A stretch of DNA of 63,816 nt, filler included, from Elsinoe ampelina (Eukaryota): NCBI GenBank assembly GCA_010093995.1. It is 32 parts of 32 records of this genome, joined end to end, with 100 filler letters (N's around TTAATTAATTAA, not from the genome) between each part and the next. Parts side by side here need not be neighbours in the genome. Positions count along the whole stretch, not along the records: positions 25,159 to 27,113 come from ML992626.1; 31 more parts are not named here. One strand, written 5' to 3'. The position numbers were made by a program, and so were the translations under genes. Positions 1 to 38,789 of this stretch are shown piece by piece. The notes beneath the pieces were generated by a model. That model searched no databases, was not told the origin of the DNA, and worked only from the letters and a program-made list of their open reading frames with translations. Positions within the stretch are counted from its first letter, which is position 1; the number at the start of each line of letters is the position of its first letter.

Positions 1-905
1 GGCTCTACTAAATCCTAAAGATTACTACTAAACTATCTACTATAGGGCATCTATAAATAGATAGCTAATTAGAGGTTATAAATTGCAAGTTTAAGTAAGT
101 TATCCGTTTATACGCTATACGCTTTAGTAATTAGATACTTATTCTACTAGTCGTAGAATTCTCCGCTAACGTTAACCTATTAGAGAGTACTAAGCTATCG
201 CTGTTTAAGGTTACTAGAGAATATAAGCTAAGGCTAAGCTTCTAGCTCCCTTCTAACGTACCGTTAATAAGAGCTAAGCTAAATAAGGTCGATATCTACG
301 TACTTACTAAGTAGCTAGAAGAGGCACTAGCTATTACTAAAGCTAACCTTACTATTACCTAGTTACAAATAGTAGAATAAGCTAATAAACACCGCTAGCT
401 AATAGAGTTTAAGGCTAGCGATTTAGTTTAGCTATTAACGAAGAACCTCTAGCTATAGGGCAATCTAAAGCTACTACTAAAGCATGTTAGTCCCTATAAG
501 ATCCTTAAGAAATAATCGCTACTAGTATATAAGCTTAATCTACTAGCTACGCTATAGAGGATTTACCTAGTATTCTATACTAACCTCCTTACTAAGCACC
601 TAAATAACCCTCTACTAGGCTAAGCCTTTAATGTACTACCTCTAGTAGAGGTCGATAGTAAAGAGAAGTATAAGGTAAATAACGTAATTAATATATATAT
701 ACTATAAGAGAAGCTAGTTACTTATATAAGCTAGAAGAGCTATCTAGAGGATCTTACCTAGTAGCTAATTAACAATCTTAAAGGAGTAGCTAATATGCTA
801 CGTAACTATCTAGACTTTTATATAGATAAGCTAAGGCTAAAATAGATCGATAAATAATATATAATAGCGTTCAAGAGTAAACACATTTAAGAGAGAAAGT
901 AGTAA
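1..905 (+). mobile_element. Gypsy family A, RIP-mutated integrase C-terminus, chromodomain and polypurine tract
   Basis: De-RIP reading gives KLSTAGHPQTDGQSE near 30-75 and a chromodomain (EEYEV...WKGYPEDPTW) near 660-770. A purine tract at ~889-900 precedes the LTR. Confidence 0.85.
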
Positions 906-8457: not shown

Positions 8458-10661
8458 TAATTACGACTAGTAAGATAAGAGGTTAATTACGTCTATTTAT
8501 TAAGATATCGAGACTTAGAAGAAGAAGAAGAAAAGCTAGTATATAAAGCACGTGTAATATTAAGGGCGGAGTAGCTAGAAGCCTAGGCTACGATACTAAG
8601 ATTATATAACTAATCTAAACTAGATACGAACTAGATTTAGTTAGGATCTATCTTATATTACTACTCTCTCTCTTAAGCGCGTTTACTCTTAAACGCTATT
8701 ATACATTATTTATCGATCTATTTCGGCCTTAGCTTATTCGTATAATAGTCTAGATAGTTACGTAGTATATTAGTAGCTCCTTTAAGATTGTTAATTAGCT
8801 ACTAGGTAAGATCTTCTAGATAGCTCTTCTAGCTTACGTAAGTAACTAGCCTTCTATGTAGTATATATATATTAACTACGTTATTTACTTTATACTTCTC
8901 TTTACTATTGACTTCTACTAGAGGTAGTTCTTCGAAGGCTTAGCCTAGTAGAAGGTTATTTAGATACTTAGTAAGAAGGTTAGTGTAGAATACTAGGTAG
9001 ATCCTTTATAGCGTAGCTAGTAGATCGAGCTTATATACTAATAGCGACTGTTTCTTAAGGATCTTATAAGGACTAATATACTTTAGTAGCAATTTCGAAT
9101 TGCTCTATAGCTAGAGGTTTTTCGTTAATAACTATACTAAGTTACCTACCTTAAACTTTATTAGCTAGTAGTATTTATTAGCTTATTCTACTATACGTAA
9201 TTAGGCGATAGTAAGGTTAGCTTTAGTAATAGCTAGTGCTTCTTCTAGTTATTTAGTAAGTACGTAGATATCGGCCTTATTTAGCTTAGCTCTTATTAAC
9301 GGCGCGTTAGAAGGGAGCTAAAAGCTTAGCCTTAGCTTATATCCTCTAGTAACCTCGAATAGTAATAGCTTAGTACTCTCTAATAGATTAACATTAGTAG
9401 AGAATTCTACGACTAGTAGAACGAGAGTCTAATTACTAAAGCGTGTAGTATATAAGCGAATAACTTACTTAAACTTACAATTTATAACCTCTAATTAGCT
9501 ATCTATTTATAGATACCTTATAGTAGAGAGTTTAGTAGTAATCTTTAGAATTTAGTAGAGCCTCTTCTATACGTCGCTAACGAACTAAGGGCCGTAATCC
9601 GAAGTAATACTATCTAGTAGACTATATAGTTTCTATACGTAGAAGAATAATAGCTTAGCTATTTTAAACACTAAAGTACTACCTTCTCTAGAGAAGTAGA
9701 GGATTAAGTATCGTTCCTTAGATAGGTAGTTAACGATATAGAGCACTACGTTATAGCCGTCTACTAAAGGTAAACTAGTAACGAAGTCTATAGTAATATA
9801 TTACTAGGGTCTTTCCGGAATAGGTAATAGTAATAGGAGGCTAGCTAGTAAGCTATAGCGAGCCTTTAAGCGTTTATAGTTGTAGTAATTAGTAATAAAC
9901 CTCTTAACGAAGTTATTATAGCCTAGGATATAAAAGGTAGTCTTAATTATAGTAGCTATCTTAGTAGCTCTAGTATGTACGTAGTTCTTTAATATATAGA
10001 CCTCTTAGATAACCTTTATAGCTATTAACTACAGTACGAATAATTAGCTAGCGACCTATAACATCCCTTTATTAATAGTAACATTAGTTAATAGTAGCTA
10101 TTTCCTCTTTAAGAAGGCCCCTATTATATAGTAGATACCTCTAACTATTTTATACTTAGTGTCCCGTAAGTTAGCTTTAGCTACTTCTTTAAAAAGGGGT
10201 AAAGGTTCTTCCGTAGCTAAGATAGGTACTATATAGGTGCCTAATTCGGCAGCCGAGATAGATGCCGATATAGGTAGCAAAATAGGTAATAAACTAGTTT
10301 ACGAACTAGATTTTAGTTCGGTAGCTAAACTAGTTCTTAGTTTAGCTCGGGATAGTAATCTAGTTCGGGTGCGACCTAGATTTAGTTTATTAATAATGCG
10401 TAGATTAAGTACTTTATATAGTAACAGCGTTTAGCGTAGATTAGAGTCTTCTTTTAAGCGTAGTATATCTCTATTTCTCCTCGTAAGTATATTAGCTTTA
10501 CTATTCGTAGCACTAGGCCTATATATAATCTTAAAGTTAAACTACGTAAGGTAGAGGGCCTAGCGTACTTAGCGGCGTAATAGCTTCTAAGTCTTTATAA
10601 AGTGTATTAAGGATTAGTAGTTAGTAAGGACGTAGATAGCCTTATTAGATTAAGTACTTAT
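8458..10661 (-). mobile_element. Gypsy family A 3' half (RNase H end, integrase, chromodomain) with 3' LTR at 8458-8657
   Basis: Reverse complement of 1-1103 and of 61400-62382. Confidence 0.88.

Positions 10662-13288: not shown

Positions 13289-13320
<32 letters not shown>
13289..13320 (-). repeat. (CAG)n polyglutamine microsatellite at the contig break
   Basis: tgctgctgctg... run on the + strand. Confidence 0.9.
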
Positions 13321-13323
<3 letters not shown>

Positions 13324-14032
13324 GTGTGCTTGTTGCTGATGAAGCTGTTGCTGCTCATGATGTGACTGAGGCGGCAACATTTGCGGAGTGTACCCATGAT
13401 TGCTGCTGATAGACTGGCGGTGCTGTATAGGTGGAGGCGGCTGAGGTGCTGATATTGGAGATGGTCCTACATTAACCGGCGATGGTTGTATGGGAGATGG
13501 ATTCGACATGGTTGGTCGGATCGGCTCAAAGCCGTTTGATATGCTCGGTATAGACATCTGTCGGAGCTGAGGATGGATATGACCATTGTAGGACGCATGA
13601 TGATTCGAATTCTGTGATTCAACATCCGAGGGCGGGCGCGCGGGGACTCGGCCAGCGTAGATGGGTTCTGTCACGTTCGGATCATGATGTTGAGGATGAT
13701 GCTGTTGGCCATTCTGTGGGGGATGAATTGCGGTTGGAGATATGGCTTGGTCGTTTCCAGCTTGTGGAGAATGAAGCTTGGTGTGGCGAAACAAGACGTC
13801 GCTATCATGATTAGCGATACCCGGTGAGAAGGTTCATTAGCATCGTGATTACCTTCGTGAGAAGCGTTTCTGACACGTCGGGCATTCGTACGGCCTTTCC
13901 TTTGTGTCTGTCATGGATCGTCAGCAAGGTCAATCAACATGAATCGAAGCACGAACGCGATCTTTGATGCCGTTTAAAGTGCTCGGTCTTTGTGAACTTT
14001 CTGTCGCAAAGTTGACATGTACGCAATACCAT
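13289..14032 (-). CDS. C2H2 zinc-finger transcription factor (two N-terminal fingers, Adr1/AmdX-like layout), 3' truncated
   Basis: Exons 14032-13957, 13907-13853 and 13801-13289 with GT-AG introns carrying CTGAC/CTAAT branch sites. Spliced protein: MVLRTCQLCDRKFTKTEHFKRHQRSHTKERPYECPTCQKRFSRSDVLFRHTKLH..., then a Q/H/P-rich region. Confidence 0.92.
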
Positions 14033-14448
14033 GGTCGCCGGTCAGACTCCGGGTGGCCGCGACTGGCCTCGGTGGGAGGTGTTTATGCCGGTAAATGTCG
14101 TATGTCGGCAGGTCGAGGCAAGGTTCACGAGATGCAGCGGGATAGTGATGCAGACGTCGAGATGGGGTTCGAGTTGCAAGGGACGTTTGCTGAAGACTCG
14201 AGTGGGGCCAGAGTGGAAGCTCTGAAAGACCAGATCCACAGCCGCCGGATGCGAAGATCCGATCGTCGCGGTGATCGATGGAGGGTGGTGGTGCTGCGAG
14301 TGTTGGTGCTGGACCAAGATACCTGCTCTGGCAATTGAAGCTGAGCGTGAGCGGACGAGGGTATGTGGATTGAACGTGAAGCTCTCGAGGAAGCTGAAGT
14401 TATGCCAACTGGCGTTGTCGAGGGTGGGACGAGGGAGCTGGAAGCCTC

Positions 14449-14498
14449 CAAGAGTTCAAGAGTTCAAGGGCTCAAGGGCTCAAGGGCTCAAGGGCAAG
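14449..14498 (+). repeat. 8-bp tandem repeat CAAG(A/G)G(T/C)T, about 5-6 units, in the divergent intergenic region
   Basis: caagagtt caagagtt caagggct caagggct caagggct caaggg. Confidence 0.85.
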
Positions 14499-15110
14499 CC
14501 GCAAAGAGGCGAGTCCACGGTCCAAACGGGGCGCGGCTCAGTAGAGAGACAAGACACAAGACACTCTCCGTCGCGTCTGATTGGCCAGCAACTGCCCCGT
14601 GCCGTGCGGGACCCGTTGTATTTCTCCGCAGATTTTCCCACAAAAGGCGAGATCCATCCGGATGAACAACAGTTCACAAGTAAGCCATCGACCTGAAAAA
14701 AGACCTCCCACATTTTGTCTTCTGACCCTGTTGTCGTTTGAAGCTCTCGATAAAACTCCTTCGTCTTCTGCTTGTCTTTCACCTCGAGAAATAATCAGGA
14801 TCAGGCTCAACAGGATGCACATGGCGCGAAACACCCCCGACACCCAGCTTCAGTTCCTTCCTGATCCGGCTGGGCTTTCCTTCAACCTTGATTAAAAAAA
14901 AGTCGCCCCTCATCAGTGACATCGTTACATTTCCATGGTTTATTGGCAAGAACACCAGATCCAATTTACACATCGTTCTCCAGGCCGCCAATCCCGCTGC
15001 TCTGCTTCATCCACGCCGCGTGAAACGCCGCTACCTCATCTGCATCGCTTTATCCGCCATACTTCCGCGACCATCTGGTTTTAGATCCTGCCATTGGCTT
15101 CTCCCCAGCC

Positions 15111-15608
15111 ATGTCTGGCGAGACCAAAGCCTGGGTCTTCAACCATGAAGGTTACCCTCGAGCACTGCGCTTGTCCACAGTGCCGATAAAGACTTCATTG
15201 GGCACAAATGAGGTTCGCGTCAAAGTGAAGGCCGCTGCCATAAACCCTGTAGACATACAACTCATGAACTTTCCTCTCTGGCCGTATCTTCCTGCCTCCA
15301 TTGCCGCGCCAGAGCATGGTGTCGCCGCCGACTTTTCTGGCATCGTCGAAGCTGCAGGAGAAGACTCGGGCTACAAGAAAGGCGACGAGGTAAGTCTGAT
15401 GTTTTCCGCACCATGTATCTCGCAAGACTCCCCCCTCTCCAATTCATCTCTAGTACAGTCCGGACAATCCCATCCCACCCTCCCACCATCCCCTACCATC
15501 CCCTACCACCCACTAACCCCTCCCCCCAGATCTTCGGCATGCTCCCCCTCCTAACCGGCACCCTCCAACAAACCATCCAATTCGCCCCCTCCCTCGCTGC
15601 CACAGCCC
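15111..15608 (+). CDS. Medium-chain dehydrogenase/reductase (GroES-like domain; Yim1/Ast1-like or quinone oxidoreductase-like), 3' truncated
   Basis: Exon 1 15111-15389 (EVRVKVKAAAINPVD...DFSGIVEAAG...YKKGDE), intron 15390-15529 (GTAAGT...CTAAC...CAG), exon 2 in frame (IFGMLP...GTLQQ). Confidence 0.88.
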
Positions 15609-25058: not shown

Positions 25059-25158
25059 NNNNNNNNNNNNNNNNNNNNNNNNNNNNNNNNNNNNNNNNNN
25101 NNTTAATTAATTAANNNNNNNNNNNNNNNNNNNNNNNNNNNNNNNNNNNNNNNNNNNN

Positions 25159-26914
25159 TACTATTCTATATAAACTATAGAATATACCCGGATCTATACT
25201 ATAATATACTTAGAATTAAGCTAATATCTAAGGATACTAATATACTAGTAGCTAATATTAAGAAACTATATAACTAGCTATACTATAATATATTATTTAT
25301 ATTATAAAGAATAGTAGAGTTTACTAACTAGAAGAGAATTACAGGACTAATTCTATAGGAGGAGAAGAAAGTTTACCTCCTTAGTAAAAACATTAAAACG
25401 AAATAACTAAGTAAGAAACTTAACTACACTAAACTAGGACCCTTTAAGATCCTAGAAAAGAAAAATAAGAACATATATAAACTAGAACTACTAAGATATA
25501 TAAGGATCTATCTAGTCTCTTATATATTACTACTAGAGAGAGTACTATAGAATACTATACCTAGACCTATTAAACTAGATAAAGAAATACAGGAACTATA
25601 GTATAAGATTAAAAGGGTTTTATATTATAAACTTATTAAAGGAAAACGCTACTATCTTATTTACTAGAAGGGATATTAGTATAGTAAAGCAACATAGGAA
25701 CTAGAGGAGTACTTTACCTTATAAATAATTCTAAATTACTAAATTAAGAACCTATCCTAAGTAAACTAACTAGACGGACCTAGTACTCCTAATACTAAAC
25801 AAAAACGAGAATGCCTAAGGAAAGTTACTTAGCTAATAGAAGTACCTTAATCGTTGCTAAATAGAGAATCCTAGTTAGAGTTAGGCATAAATAATTACTA
25901 GTCCTATAGTAGGATAGGATCTACTAATAATAGTATTTCCTCCTACTCTAGGACTTAAATATAGGTCTCTTCTAGAGAGATTACTTTCTTTGCCTTATCC
26001 TTTAACTTTTATATCTCTTTATATAGGCGAAGCTTATTGCCTATAGCTCTTTAATAAGCCTCTTCTACCTTTTTATAAGCTTCTTTAGCTTCCTTTCTAG
26101 TAGTCTTAGCTATAACTAATTCCTTTTGTAAACGAATATACTTAGACTAGAGACGCTACTATTCTAATTTTATTACTTAAATATTATAACTTAAGTAGTT
26201 ACTTACGATATACTAGCTATAGATACCCGACTAAATATAAACCTTATAATTTAGCCTCTTTAATTTGTAACAAGAATAAGCCTATAGTATATTAGTTCCG
26301 AATAGTTCGATAAACTTTAAAAGATTCTTTCGTATAGATATGCTAGATTTACTATGCCTTTAATAACTAGGAGGTATATTTAGTATATAGCGTATAAAGA
26401 CAAGAAAGAATACTTACTTATTAGGACAACTTAATTAAAGAAGGAGAGTAATGTTATAAACTAGTAGAATAGCTAGAGCGTAGAGATATTAGGGCTAATT
26501 AAACTACTAAGGTTATTATATAACCTAGCCCGACATTTACCTAGTTCTCTATCTTCTTTAGTAGCTCTACCCTAGAGACTATAGAGTACATAGGTTACTA
26601 GTAGATATATACTCTATACTACTCCTAGCTTTCGCTACGGAGTATATAGAGTATATAAAGTACATAATAGAGAATATATATATATAGAAATAGTCCTTAC
26701 CTTATATAAGTACTATAGTTAACCTTGTCTAGATAGCGAATACTAGTATTACTAAGGCTAGCCTTTGTAATACTATCTAATTATACTTTATTATCTATAA
26801 GATATACCTTCTCTAACTCTTACCTTAGTACTATACTACTATAGAAGTAGAACTACCTCGTTCTTAGCTTAGCTTAGACTACTAGCGTAGACTATGTTTA
26901 GATAGTTCGTAATA
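25159..26914 (+). mobile_element. Gypsy family F 3' end: integrase tail, chromodomain, extra 3' region, polypurine tract and 3' LTR (26452-26914)
   Basis: De-RIP KNIKTKRPSKKLDYTKLGPF and YLIHWKGYQHSEATWEPEEH. AAAGAAGGAGAG purine tract, then a 463-bp LTR matching 59621-60083 and 37012-37290. Confidence 0.9.
25829..26377 (-). pseudogene. Antisense accessory gene of gypsy family F: Zn2Cys6-like cluster plus coiled coil (~182 aa), RIP-mutated
   Basis: 549-nt frame without indels. De-RIP reading: AC-SC-C-KSKGLD-C-KVHIRSGI-C-GQ-C-x7-C-DIQVTKSEWQRL...RLQKEL...; the stops are RIP-type (TGG/CAG/CAA to TAG/TAA). Confidence 0.7.
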
Positions 26915-27113
26915 TAGAACAAGAGTCTAATTACTAAAATGTATAGCGTATAAACGAATAATCTACTCGAACTTGCAATTTATAACCTCTAATTAGCTGT
27001 CGGTTTATAGGTGCCCTATAGTAGATAGTTTAGTAGTAATCTTTAGGATTTAGTAGAGCCTCTACTATACGTCGCTAACGAACTAAGGGCCGTAGTTAGA
27101 GGTAATACTATCT
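26915..27113 (-). mobile_element. Gypsy family A integrase fragment (target of the family F insertion)
   Basis: Matches 9415-9615. Confidence 0.8.
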
Positions 27114-27213: not shown

Positions 27214-29104
27214 TAGCTGCTTAGTAAGTATATAGATGTTAACCTTATTTAGCTTAGCTCTTATTAATAGTACGTTAGAAGGGGGCTAGAAGCTTAGCCT
27301 TAGCTTATATTCTCTAGTAACCTTAAATAGCAATAGCTTAGTACTCTCTAATAGGTTAACGTTAGTAGAGAATTCTATAACTAGTAGAATAAGTGTCTAA
27401 TTACTAAAGCGTATAGTATATAAACGAATAACTTACTTAAACTTACAATTTATAACCTCTAATTAGCTATCTATTTATAGATACTCTATAGTAGATAGTT
27501 TAGTAGTAATCTTTAGGATTTAGTAGAGCCTCTTCTATACGTCGCTAACGAACTAAGGGCCGTAATCCGAGGTAATACTATCTAGTAGACTATATAGTTT
27601 CTACACGTAGAAGAATAATAGCTTAGTAGTCTCGAACGCTAAAGTGCTACCTTCTCTAGAGAAGTACGGGATTAAGTACCGTTCCTTAGATAGATAGTCG
27701 ATAATATAGAGTACTACGTTATAGCTATCTACTAAGGGTAGACTAGTAACAAAGTCTATAGTAATATATTGCTATAGTCTTACTAGAATAGGTAATAGAG
27801 AGAGAAGACTAGCTAGTAGGCTATAGCGAGCCTTCGACTATTTATAGTTATAGTAGTTAGTAATAAACCTCTTTACGTTACTATTACATCTAGGAATATA
27901 GAAGGTAGTAATTATAGTAGATATCTTAGTAGCTCCCCTATATACGTAGTCTTTTAATGTATAAACCTCTTAGATGACTTTTATAGCTATAGAGAAAGGC
28001 ACGATTAATTGGCTATCGGCCTATAGTATCTCTCTCTCGATTGTAACATTAGTTAATAGTAGCTATTTCCTCTTTAGGAAGGCCTCTATTATATAGTAAA
28101 TACTGTAGACTATTTTGAAGTTAGAATCTCGTAAGTTAGCTTTAGCTACTTTATTAAACAATAGTAAAGTTTACTCTCCTAAGGTCAAAATAGGTGCTAT
28201 ATAAGTACCTAGCTCGCGAGCCGAAATAGGCGGCGAACTAGTTCCTAAACTAGGTCCTAGTTCGGAGGCCGAACTAGATAGTAGTATAGGTAGTAAACTA
28301 GACAACGAACTAGTTCTTAGTTTAGCTTAAGTTACAAATCCGATTTAGACGCGACCTAGATTCAGTTCGTTAATAATATACTAATTAAGCACTTTATATA
28401 GTAATAGCGTCTAGTATAAGTTAGAGTTCTCCTTCAAGTGTAGTATATCTCCGTTTCTCCTTATAAGAGCGTTAGCTTTACCATTAGCGACGCTAGGCCT
28501 ATATATAATTTTAAAGTTAAACTAAGTAAGGTAGAGAGCCTAGCGTACTTAGCGGCGTAATAGCTTTTAAGTCTTTATAAAGTATATTAAGGATTAGTAG
28601 TTAGTAAGGACGTAGATAGCCTTATTAGATTAAGTCTTTATAAGCTTAGGGGCCTACTCCTCGAAGGCTTAGACGATAGCTAGTAGCTCCTTATCGTAGA
28701 TAGCGTAGTTACGCTCGGCTTTATTTATAGACTTACTAAAAAAGGTAATAGGCTAGAGGACGTTAGACTTATTATATTATAATAGAATTCTCGTAGTAGT
28801 AGTATTAGAAGCGTTAGTCTCGAGGACTATCTACTTTAAGTAATTAAAATATATAAGGATAGGCACACTCGTAATAGTATACTTTATATAGTTAAAGGTA
28901 GCAATATATTTGTCGTTCTATAGCGTAGCGTCCTTCTTAAGCAAGTTATTTAATAGCTTAGCGATAGTGCTAAATCCCTTAATAAAGTAGTAGTAGTAGC
29001 TATAGAAACTAATAAAGCTCCTTACCTAAGTAGTATTACTAGGGGCTAGCTATTTCTACGCTTATATAGCTTCTACCTTCTTAGGATCTATCTTAACTCT
29101 ATCT
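27214..29104 (-). mobile_element. Gypsy family A pol (RT end, RNase H, integrase), RIP-mutated
   Basis: Reverse complement of 60996-62382; also matches 9250-10661. Confidence 0.87.
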
Positions 29105-37011: not shown

Positions 37012-38789
37012 TATAGAGTACATACAGCATATAGAGAACACAATAGAGAATATATGTATATAGGAATAGTCCTTACCTTATATAAGTACTATAGTTAACC
37101 TCGTCTAGATAGCGAACACTAGTATTACTAAGGCTAGCCTTTGTAATACTATCTAATTGTACTTTATTATCTATAAGACATACCTTCTCTAACTCTTACC
37201 TTAGTGCTATACTACTATAGAAGTAGAACTACCTCGTTCCTAGCTTAGCTTAGACTACTAGTGTAGGCTATGTTTAGACAGTTCGTAACATTTTAACTAC
37301 TCTTACTATAGTATAGCACGCTATAAGGTTAATAAGTAACTCTTGCTCTAAGTTACTATTAGCATCTTTAATCGCTAGTAAGCTAGGAAAGCTTACTATT
37401 AATAACATATGTACTACTAGTTTAACCTCGAGCGAACATAGAAGGTCTTTTAGTATAGAAGGACAAAGTAGGCCTAAGTTAGAGGTAGAACTCTTCTATA
37501 GGGACTATGCCTACTTAAGGCGCTTCCTTGTTTAACTTAAAGCCTTCTTCGCTCTAGAGAGAGATAAGTATAGCAACGACACAGCAAAGGTCCTCTATAC
37601 TAAGATACACCTTAAGAGCGCTACCTTCGGGTAGTTCGAGCCTTATATAAGTAGCTACCTAGATAGATAACTAGGCCTAGATATAAAGGCTATCTTTAAG
37701 AGCTTTAGTATCTTCTAGGCAAAGATTAAGCAAGTCTTTAATGTATCTAACAAGGAACGTGTCGCTATAACAAAGATTTAACAATTATAACAACGTAGGT
37801 CTATAGCCTAGTACTATTTCTAGTTCTAACAACTTGTAATATACCTAGACTAGGACAATAGTACTAAACACTTAGTATTCTATTAAGGACTAAGCGACTT
37901 AGTTAAAGACTAAATAATACTTAAGCTACTCGATAGCCTTTAGGAACTAGTAGACACTATAATTACTATTAATAATAGACTTTATAAACGACGTATAGAA
38001 CGTTATAGGGGATATAAGGTAAATACTAGATATACGCGTTCCTCCCGAAACTATAGAGACCCTATAGAACTTAATACTATATACAAAGGCTGCCTCTTAT
38101 AGGTACGAGGCTACAGCCGTAGAGGAAAGTTCCTTAGTAGAAAAGAGAGAAAGAAGTATAGATAAGATAATCTATATTTTAAATATAAAAGACCTAGGTA
38201 TCGAGCTAGGGACTACCGATAAGGGGCGCTAGCTAATAAATTATATATAATAGTTACTAGGCTAGTAGAAAAAAAGGCCGACACTACTATAGAAGACCTA
38301 ACGACCTTTAGTATAGGTAAGGAAATATAGAAGAGATCTATAACAACTCGAGAGGTAATAGAATCCTCTCTAGATGTTATGCTTAATATCTCTACGACTA
38401 ATAGCGAATAATAAAGCTAATATGCGACGCTATTATAGATAGTATATTATAATAACTCTTATTATATTTACTTATTAGATAAGTAGGGATCTAGTTAGTT
38501 CCTATATAAGCTATCTAAGCGTAGGTAACTAATAAAATAGCTAGACTAGAGGCTTAACCTAGAAAGGCTCTCTATAATTAGTAGTAATATTAACTAACCT
38601 TAGAAGGTAGTTAGCGACAATTACTAATATACGATTATCGAGATAAAGTATTAGGACGCAAGTGCTATATAATAACATAGTAGTTTTACTTTTAGCTCTT
38701 ATAGTAAACTACAAGGAAAGGCATATTATATATCGCTCTAGAAATGTACAAATCTAGATTATAAATAGTACTATACTATCTACTTATAC
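37012..38789 (+). mobile_element. Gypsy family F partial 5' LTR (to 37290) and gag, RIP-mutated
   Basis: The LTR ends GTTCGTAACA at 37290. The gag region aligns to 20509-21965 with extra C>T/G>A changes. Confidence 0.9.

Follow-up and report, generated by a model that had tools for sequence, protein, structure and literature searches.

We analysed a 63,816-nt stretch of DNA from Elsinoe ampelina (assembly GCA_010093995.1), hereafter the window, and focused on a minus-strand reading frame of 549 nt (26377..25829) located next to the 3' end of a Ty3/gypsy pol gene, within a single 1955-bp contig (25159-27113, from ML992626.1). We conclude that this frame is very probably a copy, killed by repeat-induced point mutation (RIP), of a conserved antisense accessory gene that is carried by a chromovirus lineage of Ascomycota and is proposed to encode a dimeric zinc-cluster regulator. 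The initial annotation had reversed RIP on paper, reading Tyr codons as former Cys codons, and had placed an antisense gene for a GAL4-type Zn2Cys6 and coiled-coil protein between pol and the polypurine tract (PPT) and 3' long terminal repeat (LTR) of this element. An antisense gene at that position is real, and the copy in the window is dead.

The frame was recovered by homology to a family of proteins. When its stop codons were translated as X, phmmer against 1.84 billion representative proteins returned eight matches at E <= 1e-3 (best 9.3e-12, 61.6 bits). All eight were 177-211 amino acids (aa) long; seven were colinear with query residues 6-159, and the eighth (P0012) aligned to query residues 9-111 only. 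A profile of 119 family members, searched against the six-frame translation of the whole window (127,628 residues), gave a single match, on the minus strand at 26359-25934, in one frame and with 59.5 bits. The MAFFT alignment set six Tyr of the window copy on the six Cys of the family without a gap, whereas hmmalign placed a TGT codon of the window on the second Cys and opened a one-column gap. Among the 45 family columns conserved in at least 80% of the members, the E. ampelina copy was identical at 24; 18 of the 21 differing columns can be reached by C>T/G>A changes alone, and none by changes in the reverse direction. The alignment was colinear from the Met-Pro (MP) start through the C-terminal tail, so that, as judged by alignment, the frame is a homologue over the full length of a protein family of about 160-280 aa. 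Several earlier claims are borne out here: the frame is present and stays in register with a protein family, intact relatives have Cys exactly where the six Tyr codons stand, their spacing (C-x2-C-x6-C-x8-C-x2-C-x6/7/8-C) is the one predicted, and the long helix followed by an acidic/aromatic tail is found in the family, both in the alignment and in an AlphaFold2 model.

Taken alone, the window copy says much less. The frame is not open, with 18 stops (8 TAA, 10 TAG and no TGA), and the remaining two minus-strand frames are likewise stop-rich. The Cys places are occupied by Tyr codons (TAT at 26278, 26248, 26221, 26212 and 26188; TAC at 26269), and the family motif C[KR]VH[VI]RSGxC reads YKVYI*SGIY. 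A six-frame translation of the spacer between pol and the LTR (stops as X) had no Pfam match, and a word-index protein search with the window translation gave no match. The AT-rich contigs (96,520 six-frame codons) contained 12 instances of the pattern [YC]x2[YC]x6[YC]x5-12[YC]x2[YC]x6-8[YC], of which contig 25159-27113 had three, and by itself the pattern is no better than chance. The GC-rich contig 13289-15608, with four pattern starts, was examined as another candidate and rejected, having no evident zinc-cluster open reading frame (ORF). The frequency of the pattern, the stops in all three minus frames and the silence of Pfam are what speaks for the view that a spacer rich in TAT and TAC after RIP merely mimics a Cys motif, with no gene behind it. 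That view is refuted by the homology to a large family of intact ORFs, and the RIP direction of the differences and the conserved element context also argue against it; we consider it next to impossible.

We also set the window copy against further copies of this element, found in two DNA runs (X1 and X2) from one sample, in which thousands of contig pieces cover the stretch. Where the frame begins with ATA (26377-26375), about 85% of the depth of these further copies shows ATG (T>C at position 26375: 42726/50147 in X1 and 62186/73887 in X2). Among the differences listed for these copies (40 of 303), the majority differences remove no stop, and the middle bases of the Tyr codons (26277, 26268, 26247, 26220, 26211 and 26187) are absent, so that this comparison bears on the start codon and the stops and not on Tyr versus Cys. 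The copy in the window cannot produce the family protein.

The family itself is large. A profile search of a 5.8-billion collection found 162 proteins at E <= 1e-3 among the 8000 candidates scored. The 120 of these that were listed all had E <= 4.1e-49 and none carried a precomputed Pfam domain; almost all came from metagenomes or run assemblies, and one was a hypothetical protein of a metagenome-assembled genome of a lichen fungus. Many members were encoded on contigs of 6.3-7.4 kb, and in the Atlas (P0026) the family falls in unnamed Ascomycota clusters without Pfam families. Members share an MP start and the segment SSTxRRxxLxxFIxxFG, followed by the cluster C-x2-C-x6-C-[KR]VH[VI]RSGx-C-x2-C-x6..8-C, the segment DVRVTxxE[WF]xRL, a long helix that includes AEEAIAVEE, and finally the tail, LxLSPxTWxAxDGxPDxFW. 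In the 119 aligned members, C45, C48, C55 and C67 were invariant and C64 and C76 were conserved in at least 90%; the spacing 2-6-8-2-6/7/8 was present in all 16 intact loci in which it was read. We found no longer or fused forms of the family protein, which is weak evidence.

Not all members are intact. Six loci of the metagenome scan described below (L024, L026 and L028-L031) and the protein P0012 showed RIP-like decay, for example Cys to Tyr in ..VYKVYVRSGKYSEY.., and P0012 is itself mutated from Cys to Tyr at several places of the cluster. The antisense gene thus meets RIP-type decay in other fungi too.

The setting of the gene was examined in 31 loci (L001-L031) recovered by a metagenome scan, in 19 of which the antisense ORF was intact. 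A gypsy pol C-terminus was found on the opposite strand in 25 of the 31, at -82 to +237 nt from the gene end, and four further loci had less than 210 nt of DNA on the pol side; in these relatives the gene occupies the position that had been anticipated, antisense at the pol 3' end. The gene is convergent with the 3' end of pol and often overlaps it. The opposite-strand ORFs comprised protease, reverse transcriptase, RNase H, integrase (H2C2, rve and SH3_Tf2-1) and chromodomain, as well as gag with a zinc knuckle. In intact relatives pol terminates with SH3_Tf2-1 and then Chromo, and the four complete pol ORFs scanned have every domain; the rve integrase core fell short of a stretch at E <= 1e-5 in three of nine scanned (L011, L009 and L014). 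By this domain content the carrier element is a Ty3/gypsy chromovirus. Identity of the carrier pol proteins to the reference ranges from 42 to 83%, and because they have diverged this far, the arrangement of gene and pol is old.

L017 and L018, which hold the same element (L018:9563-11946), contain a 2.4-kb derivative without pol, in which 300-nt direct repeats, 95% alike and 2.1 kb apart, flank the antisense gene (a 175-aa ORF) and an opposite-strand ORF of 166 aa. This is an internally deleted derivative and possibly a non-autonomous element that keeps the accessory gene. The contig ends of L009 and L011 carry exact terminal repeats of 127 nt (units of 7284 and 6242 nt), likely the assembly closing on a collapsed LTR.

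In principle, the gene might not be a component of the retrotransposon and might come from the host or from a second element inserted into this copy. It has a single copy in the window, where blastn found no second copy of 25159-26449, and it occurs between the repeats of L017 and L018 without pol. The recurrence of this position and orientation among 25 of the 31 loci, across pol proteins as little as 42% identical to the reference, and a read depth of the same order over the pol end, the spacer and the LTR start (X1 and X2) argue that gene and element belong together, and the lack of fused forms points weakly the same way. We regard a host or nested origin as highly improbable.

We then asked which strand carries the conserved signal. 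Among 18 intact genes (153 pairs), 27 pairs had a synonymous divergence (dS) between 0.05 and 2, and their ratio of nonsynonymous to synonymous divergence (dN/dS) was 0.13-0.53. The closest pairs within subfamilies had dN/dS of 0.13-0.16, among them L010-L012 with a dS of 1.20 and a dN of 0.17. For a comparison of all six frames we chose nine less diverged pairs from the 27. The gene frame had the lowest ratio of nonsynonymous to synonymous differences (pN/pS) in all nine (its median was 0.32, whereas the other five had 0.51 and 1.17-1.75), and the third codon position of the gene frame was the most variable (0.456, versus 0.287 and 0.253). The antisense frame is the coding frame because it combines the lowest pN/pS with the most variable third position, and these substitution patterns indicate that purifying selection acts on it and not on the pol strand. 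The selection on the antisense frame that the initial annotation called for is therefore there. Open frames of 153-225 aa do run across the gene on the pol strand in several loci (e.g. L013 326-1000 and L014 147-785), and these would fit a pol C-terminal extension or a sense ORF3 whose mirror is the antisense frame. Against this stand the pN/pS and third-position results, the pol stop just past the chromodomain, and the confident fold prediction for the antisense frame, and we give such an explanation very little credence.

AlphaFold2, run on the 119-member alignment, gave a model with a predicted local distance difference test (pLDDT) score of 83, and a model of the domain only with 79. Helices were predicted at residues 23-37, 46-51, 65-70 and 82-177, the last at pLDDT 96-99, and the short helices 46-51 and 65-70 begin right after the first Cys of each CxxC. 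We compared both models with the PDB (350,542 chains) using Foldseek. Zn2Cys6 DNA-binding domains made up 21 of the 25 rows shown for the full model and 23 of 30 for the domain model, including all of the first 16 rows of the latter. They comprised HAP1, Pho7, Ppr1, Put3, Leu3, Gal4, LAC9, AlcR and two CBF3 rows; in CBF3, it is Cep3 that has such a cluster. The local fit to HAP1 (1pyc) had a TMt of 0.70 and a root-mean-square deviation of 2.2 A over 36 columns. We also predicted a homodimer from two copies of P0007 residues 20-180. It scored 0.43, versus 0.12 for the best control, which supports a homodimer. Of proteins with solved structures, 21 of 30 same-chain pairs and none of 23 single chains came up to the mark; the model runs shared at least 96% of contacts, with a partner pLDDT of at least 83.

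A number of results weigh against a dimeric zinc cluster of the GAL4 type. No Foldseek match to the PDB reached E <= 1e-3, the Zn2Cys6 rows lying at E >= 0.32. Z scores from VIA-align were at most 2.8 (Ppr1 2.6, HAP1 2.5, Gal4 2.1), the noise level for a small domain. The PDB sequence profile aligned all six Cys with LAC9, at a non-significant E of 0.44 (0.44-4.2). PF00172 matched 24 of 119 members at E <= 1 (best E 0.012), did not appear at E <= 0.002 for any of the 112 members rescanned, and scored 9.7-12.1 bits in the three of the first eight matches with scores listed, versus a cut-off of 21. The dimer contacts were antiparallel (i+j about 233), unlike those of Gal4-type dimers, and such a dimer would have one Cys cluster at either end, with about 95 helical residues between them; its score may also derive from a likeness of the helix to solved coiled coils. 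Finally, neither CGG-N-CCG nor CCG-N-CGG nor any direct CGG spacing was enriched in 16 LTR segments, a test that is only a proxy for DNA binding. Thus, of the GAL4-type Zn2Cys6 domain that had been claimed, the Cys spacing fits the consensus, and membership in PF00172 is unproven: the HMMER comparison that had been suggested for it came out negative. The fold matches point to Zn2Cys6 domains at scores short of significance, and the assignment is not proven. Two further outcomes of these searches concern other proteins: the top row of the wide VIA-align search (7d3u, Z 2.8), an unrelated membrane protein, was rejected, and the best rows of the PDB sequence profile were Gfh1 coiled coils at a non-significant E of 0.014.

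The six-Cys module may instead be another zinc module, similar to DUF3716 (PF12511), that binds protein or RNA (e.g. element RNA, Gag or integrase) and makes the product a structural or copy-number factor. The usual Zn2Cys6 loop between Cys 3 and Cys 4 contains Pro, and the KVHVRSG found there in the family is unlike it. The sub-threshold PF00172 scores, the antiparallel dimer model and the lack of CGG enrichment in the LTRs fit this alternative as well, and one member (P0030) reached DUF3716 with 22.9 bits versus a gathering threshold of 22, over profile positions 4-59 of 59. Two other members scored 19.5 and P0007 scored 17.2, and nine of 119 members matched the full length of DUF3716 at E <= 1. 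DUF3716 proteins (REP9-1 and REP9-2) lie on a class II transposon of Zymoseptoria tritici, according to the passages of PMC8232023 that deal with them. The family resembles these in having a Cys-rich fungal domain in a transposon-borne accessory protein, and differs, as far as those passages describe them, in transposon class and protein length, besides the small number of members that match DUF3716. On the other side, the Cys spacing fits Zn2Cys6 exactly, the first 16 rows for the domain model were Zn2Cys6 domains among 350,542 chains, and all six Cys align with LAC9. We hold a DUF3716-like module to be possible rather than probable; as to the mode of binding, we somewhat favour a GAL4-like, DNA-binding mode over a DUF3716-like, protein- or RNA-binding one.

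Regarding the expression of the gene, each of the 16 intact loci had, 49-118 nt upstream of its ATG, an LTR edge (TAACA on the gene strand) and a pyrimidine tract, the complement of the PPT; in the E. ampelina copy 79 nt separate the LTR edge and the start codon. Because the ATG is only 49-118 nt from the LTR edge, the promoter of the gene would lie within the U3 region of the 3' LTR, from which antisense transcription would start. The palindrome TCACGTGA was present in 11 of 16 LTRs (L001-L020), at 72-128 nt from the U3 edge, where in shuffled controls any 8-mer was common to at most five of 16. A TATA motif (GTATATAG on the pol strand) was found in 14 of 16 LTR segments, at a conserved distance of 156-247 nt from the edge, the remaining two segments being shorter than 190 nt. 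These motifs suggest that the sense and antisense promoters share one control region. Between PPT and ATG, all loci (L001-L025) also carried a conserved hairpin whose loop reads GTCC(TC), at 20-45 nt past the LTR edge (e.g. L005:477-492 and L011:190-207). Compensatory changes were observed at seven of its eight pairs, with 17 G-U pairs on the gene strand versus four on the pol strand, an asymmetry that mildly favours a structure in the leader of the antisense RNA. Two further runs presumed to be RNA (X3 and X6) did not cover the gene, which speaks neither for nor against a transcript.

Put together, the layout and the models suggest how the product of the intact gene could work. The protein would bind zinc through its six Cys, with a fold like that of the fungal Zn2Cys6 cluster, and would dimerise by a coiled coil of about 95 residues, as the structure models predict. 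From the layout, we propose that it is a small nuclear regulator of its own element, and it could bind the LTR or the element RNA and recruit partners through its acidic/aromatic tail. The roles put forward by the initial annotation (LTR regulation, countering of silencing, targeting) are hypothetical. HBZ of HTLV-1 is encoded antisense and expressed under the 3' LTR; it is a nuclear factor that dimerises through a coiled coil and has an activation-type region, and it is a basic leucine zipper (bZIP) protein of an animal retrovirus. The likeness to the fungal protein is an analogy of layout only, with no homology and with a bZIP in place of a zinc cluster. More tentatively, and with a good deal of doubt, we propose that the chromovirus lineage encodes a dimeric protein resembling zinc-cluster transcription factors, whose RNA starts antisense within the 3' LTR and has a conserved hairpin in its 5' leader. 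Such a protein would tune the bidirectional LTR promoter or blunt host silencing; it would be a counterpart of HBZ in fungal retrotransposons, and brtn would belong to its family.

The gene has precedents in position. In Boty-like elements, an antisense gene named brtn lies between pol and the 3' LTR (Zhao et al. 2011, Virology 417:248), as mentioned in passages of PMC8365987, PMC7264820, PMC4227169 and PMC5987419. As in our loci, this is an extra antisense gene between the pol and the 3' LTR of a fungal Ty3/gypsy element whose pol has a chromodomain, a comparison by position only; the citing passages are silent on function and on any Cys cluster or coiled coil. The name and sequence of BRTN were absent among the matches listed for phmmer, the profile search and the Atlas. 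In plants, antisense ORFs between pol and the 3' LTR are described for RIRE2, Grande, Retand and PvRetro13, conserved within families and of unknown function (relevant passages of PMC7264820). These share the position and orientation of the fungal gene, as far as their description goes, while their carriers belong to non-chromovirus lineages, and the same passages do not mention a zinc-cluster or coiled-coil architecture. Our full-text literature search turned up no fungal retrotransposon with an antisense protein of zinc-cluster or coiled-coil type, only citations of brtn, and the survey 'LTR Retrotransposons in Fungi' uses neither 'antisense' nor 'additional ORF'. Genes of this kind and at this place are known already, and the breadth, selection, architecture and leader hairpin of the present one appear to be new.

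With respect to the Zn2Cys6 proteins (Gal4, Ppr1, Put3, Hap1, Leu3, LAC9 and Pho7; PF00172), the family shares the six Cys at 2-6-8-2-6..8 and, in the predicted structure, the two short helices and a coiled coil directly after the cluster, besides an acidic tail. It differs in its KVHVRSG loop, in a helix of about 95 residues that is much longer, in the predicted antiparallel dimer and in its scores below the Pfam threshold, and also in lacking a middle-homology region, in its length of about 190 aa and in being carried by a transposon.

Finally, we describe the setting of the copy in the window. The window consists of 32 separate contigs (1334-2738 bp), arranged from the longest to the shortest and linked by spacers of the form N44+TTAATTAATTAA+N44 (e.g. 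25059-25158), so that neighbours across spacers are not genomic neighbours. The contig at 25159-27113 has a GC content of 0.29, a TpA/ApT ratio of 1.91 and a (CpA+TpG)/(ApC+GpT) ratio of 0.16, and by the usual thresholds for these indices its base composition is RIP-like. Its order of pol end (about 25832), antisense gene, PPT and LTR agrees with the anatomy first described (pol stop, gap of about 600 nt, PPT, LTR). The pol remnant matched PF24626 (SH3_Tf2-1) with E 4.6e-7 over residues 70-115, roughly 25368-25505, the sole pol domain passing in the window. Coordinates of the helix remnant (Table 1) were transferred by hand from the family alignment. Further copies of the LTR of this contig were found by blastn within the window at 60086-59620 and 37016-37291. 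Just past the LTR, the flank (26915-27094) belongs to another repeat that recurs, at 88-90% identity, at 27385-27564, 9417-9596 and 146-1, so that the element lies amid other repeated DNA.

Table 1. Features of the retrotransposon remnant and of its antisense gene in the window.
Feature	Coordinates	Strand	Remarks
Ty3/gypsy pol 3' end (integrase C-terminus and chromodomain-like stretch)	25161..25832	+	15 in-frame stops, RIP-degraded
Antisense accessory gene, RIP-inactivated copy	25829..26377	-	183 codons, 18 TAA/TAG stops
Acidic/aromatic C-terminal tail remnant	25829..25903	-	family consensus LxLSPxTWxAxDGxPDxFW
Long coiled-coil helix remnant	25904..26170	-	matches helix 82-177 of the family model
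Six-Cys cluster remnant	26186..26278	-	six Cys codons now Tyr
GTCCT hairpin-loop motif remnant	26423..26427	-	hairpin arms unrecognisable in the E. ampelina copy
Polypurine tract AAAGAAGGAGAGTAA	26437..26451	+	beside the LTR edge, as in 16 of 16 intact loci
3' LTR, 464 nt	26452..26915	+	starts TGTTA, ends ..GTTCGTAATA; junction 26915

Accessory genes of LTR retrotransposons are rare and their function is mostly unknown. The antisense gene described here is old, widespread in Ascomycota and under purifying selection, and its predicted architecture joins a six-Cys cluster, a long dimerising helix and an acidic tail. At least about 160 entries of public data that are now unnamed 'hypothetical proteins' can be annotated as accessory proteins of retrotransposons, and reading Tyr back to Cys, as the reversal of RIP, can bring real genes to light in fungal repeats that are heavily mutated. 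The architecture yields testable hypotheses on zinc binding, on binding to DNA or RNA and on control of the LTR, where this class of genes previously had none.

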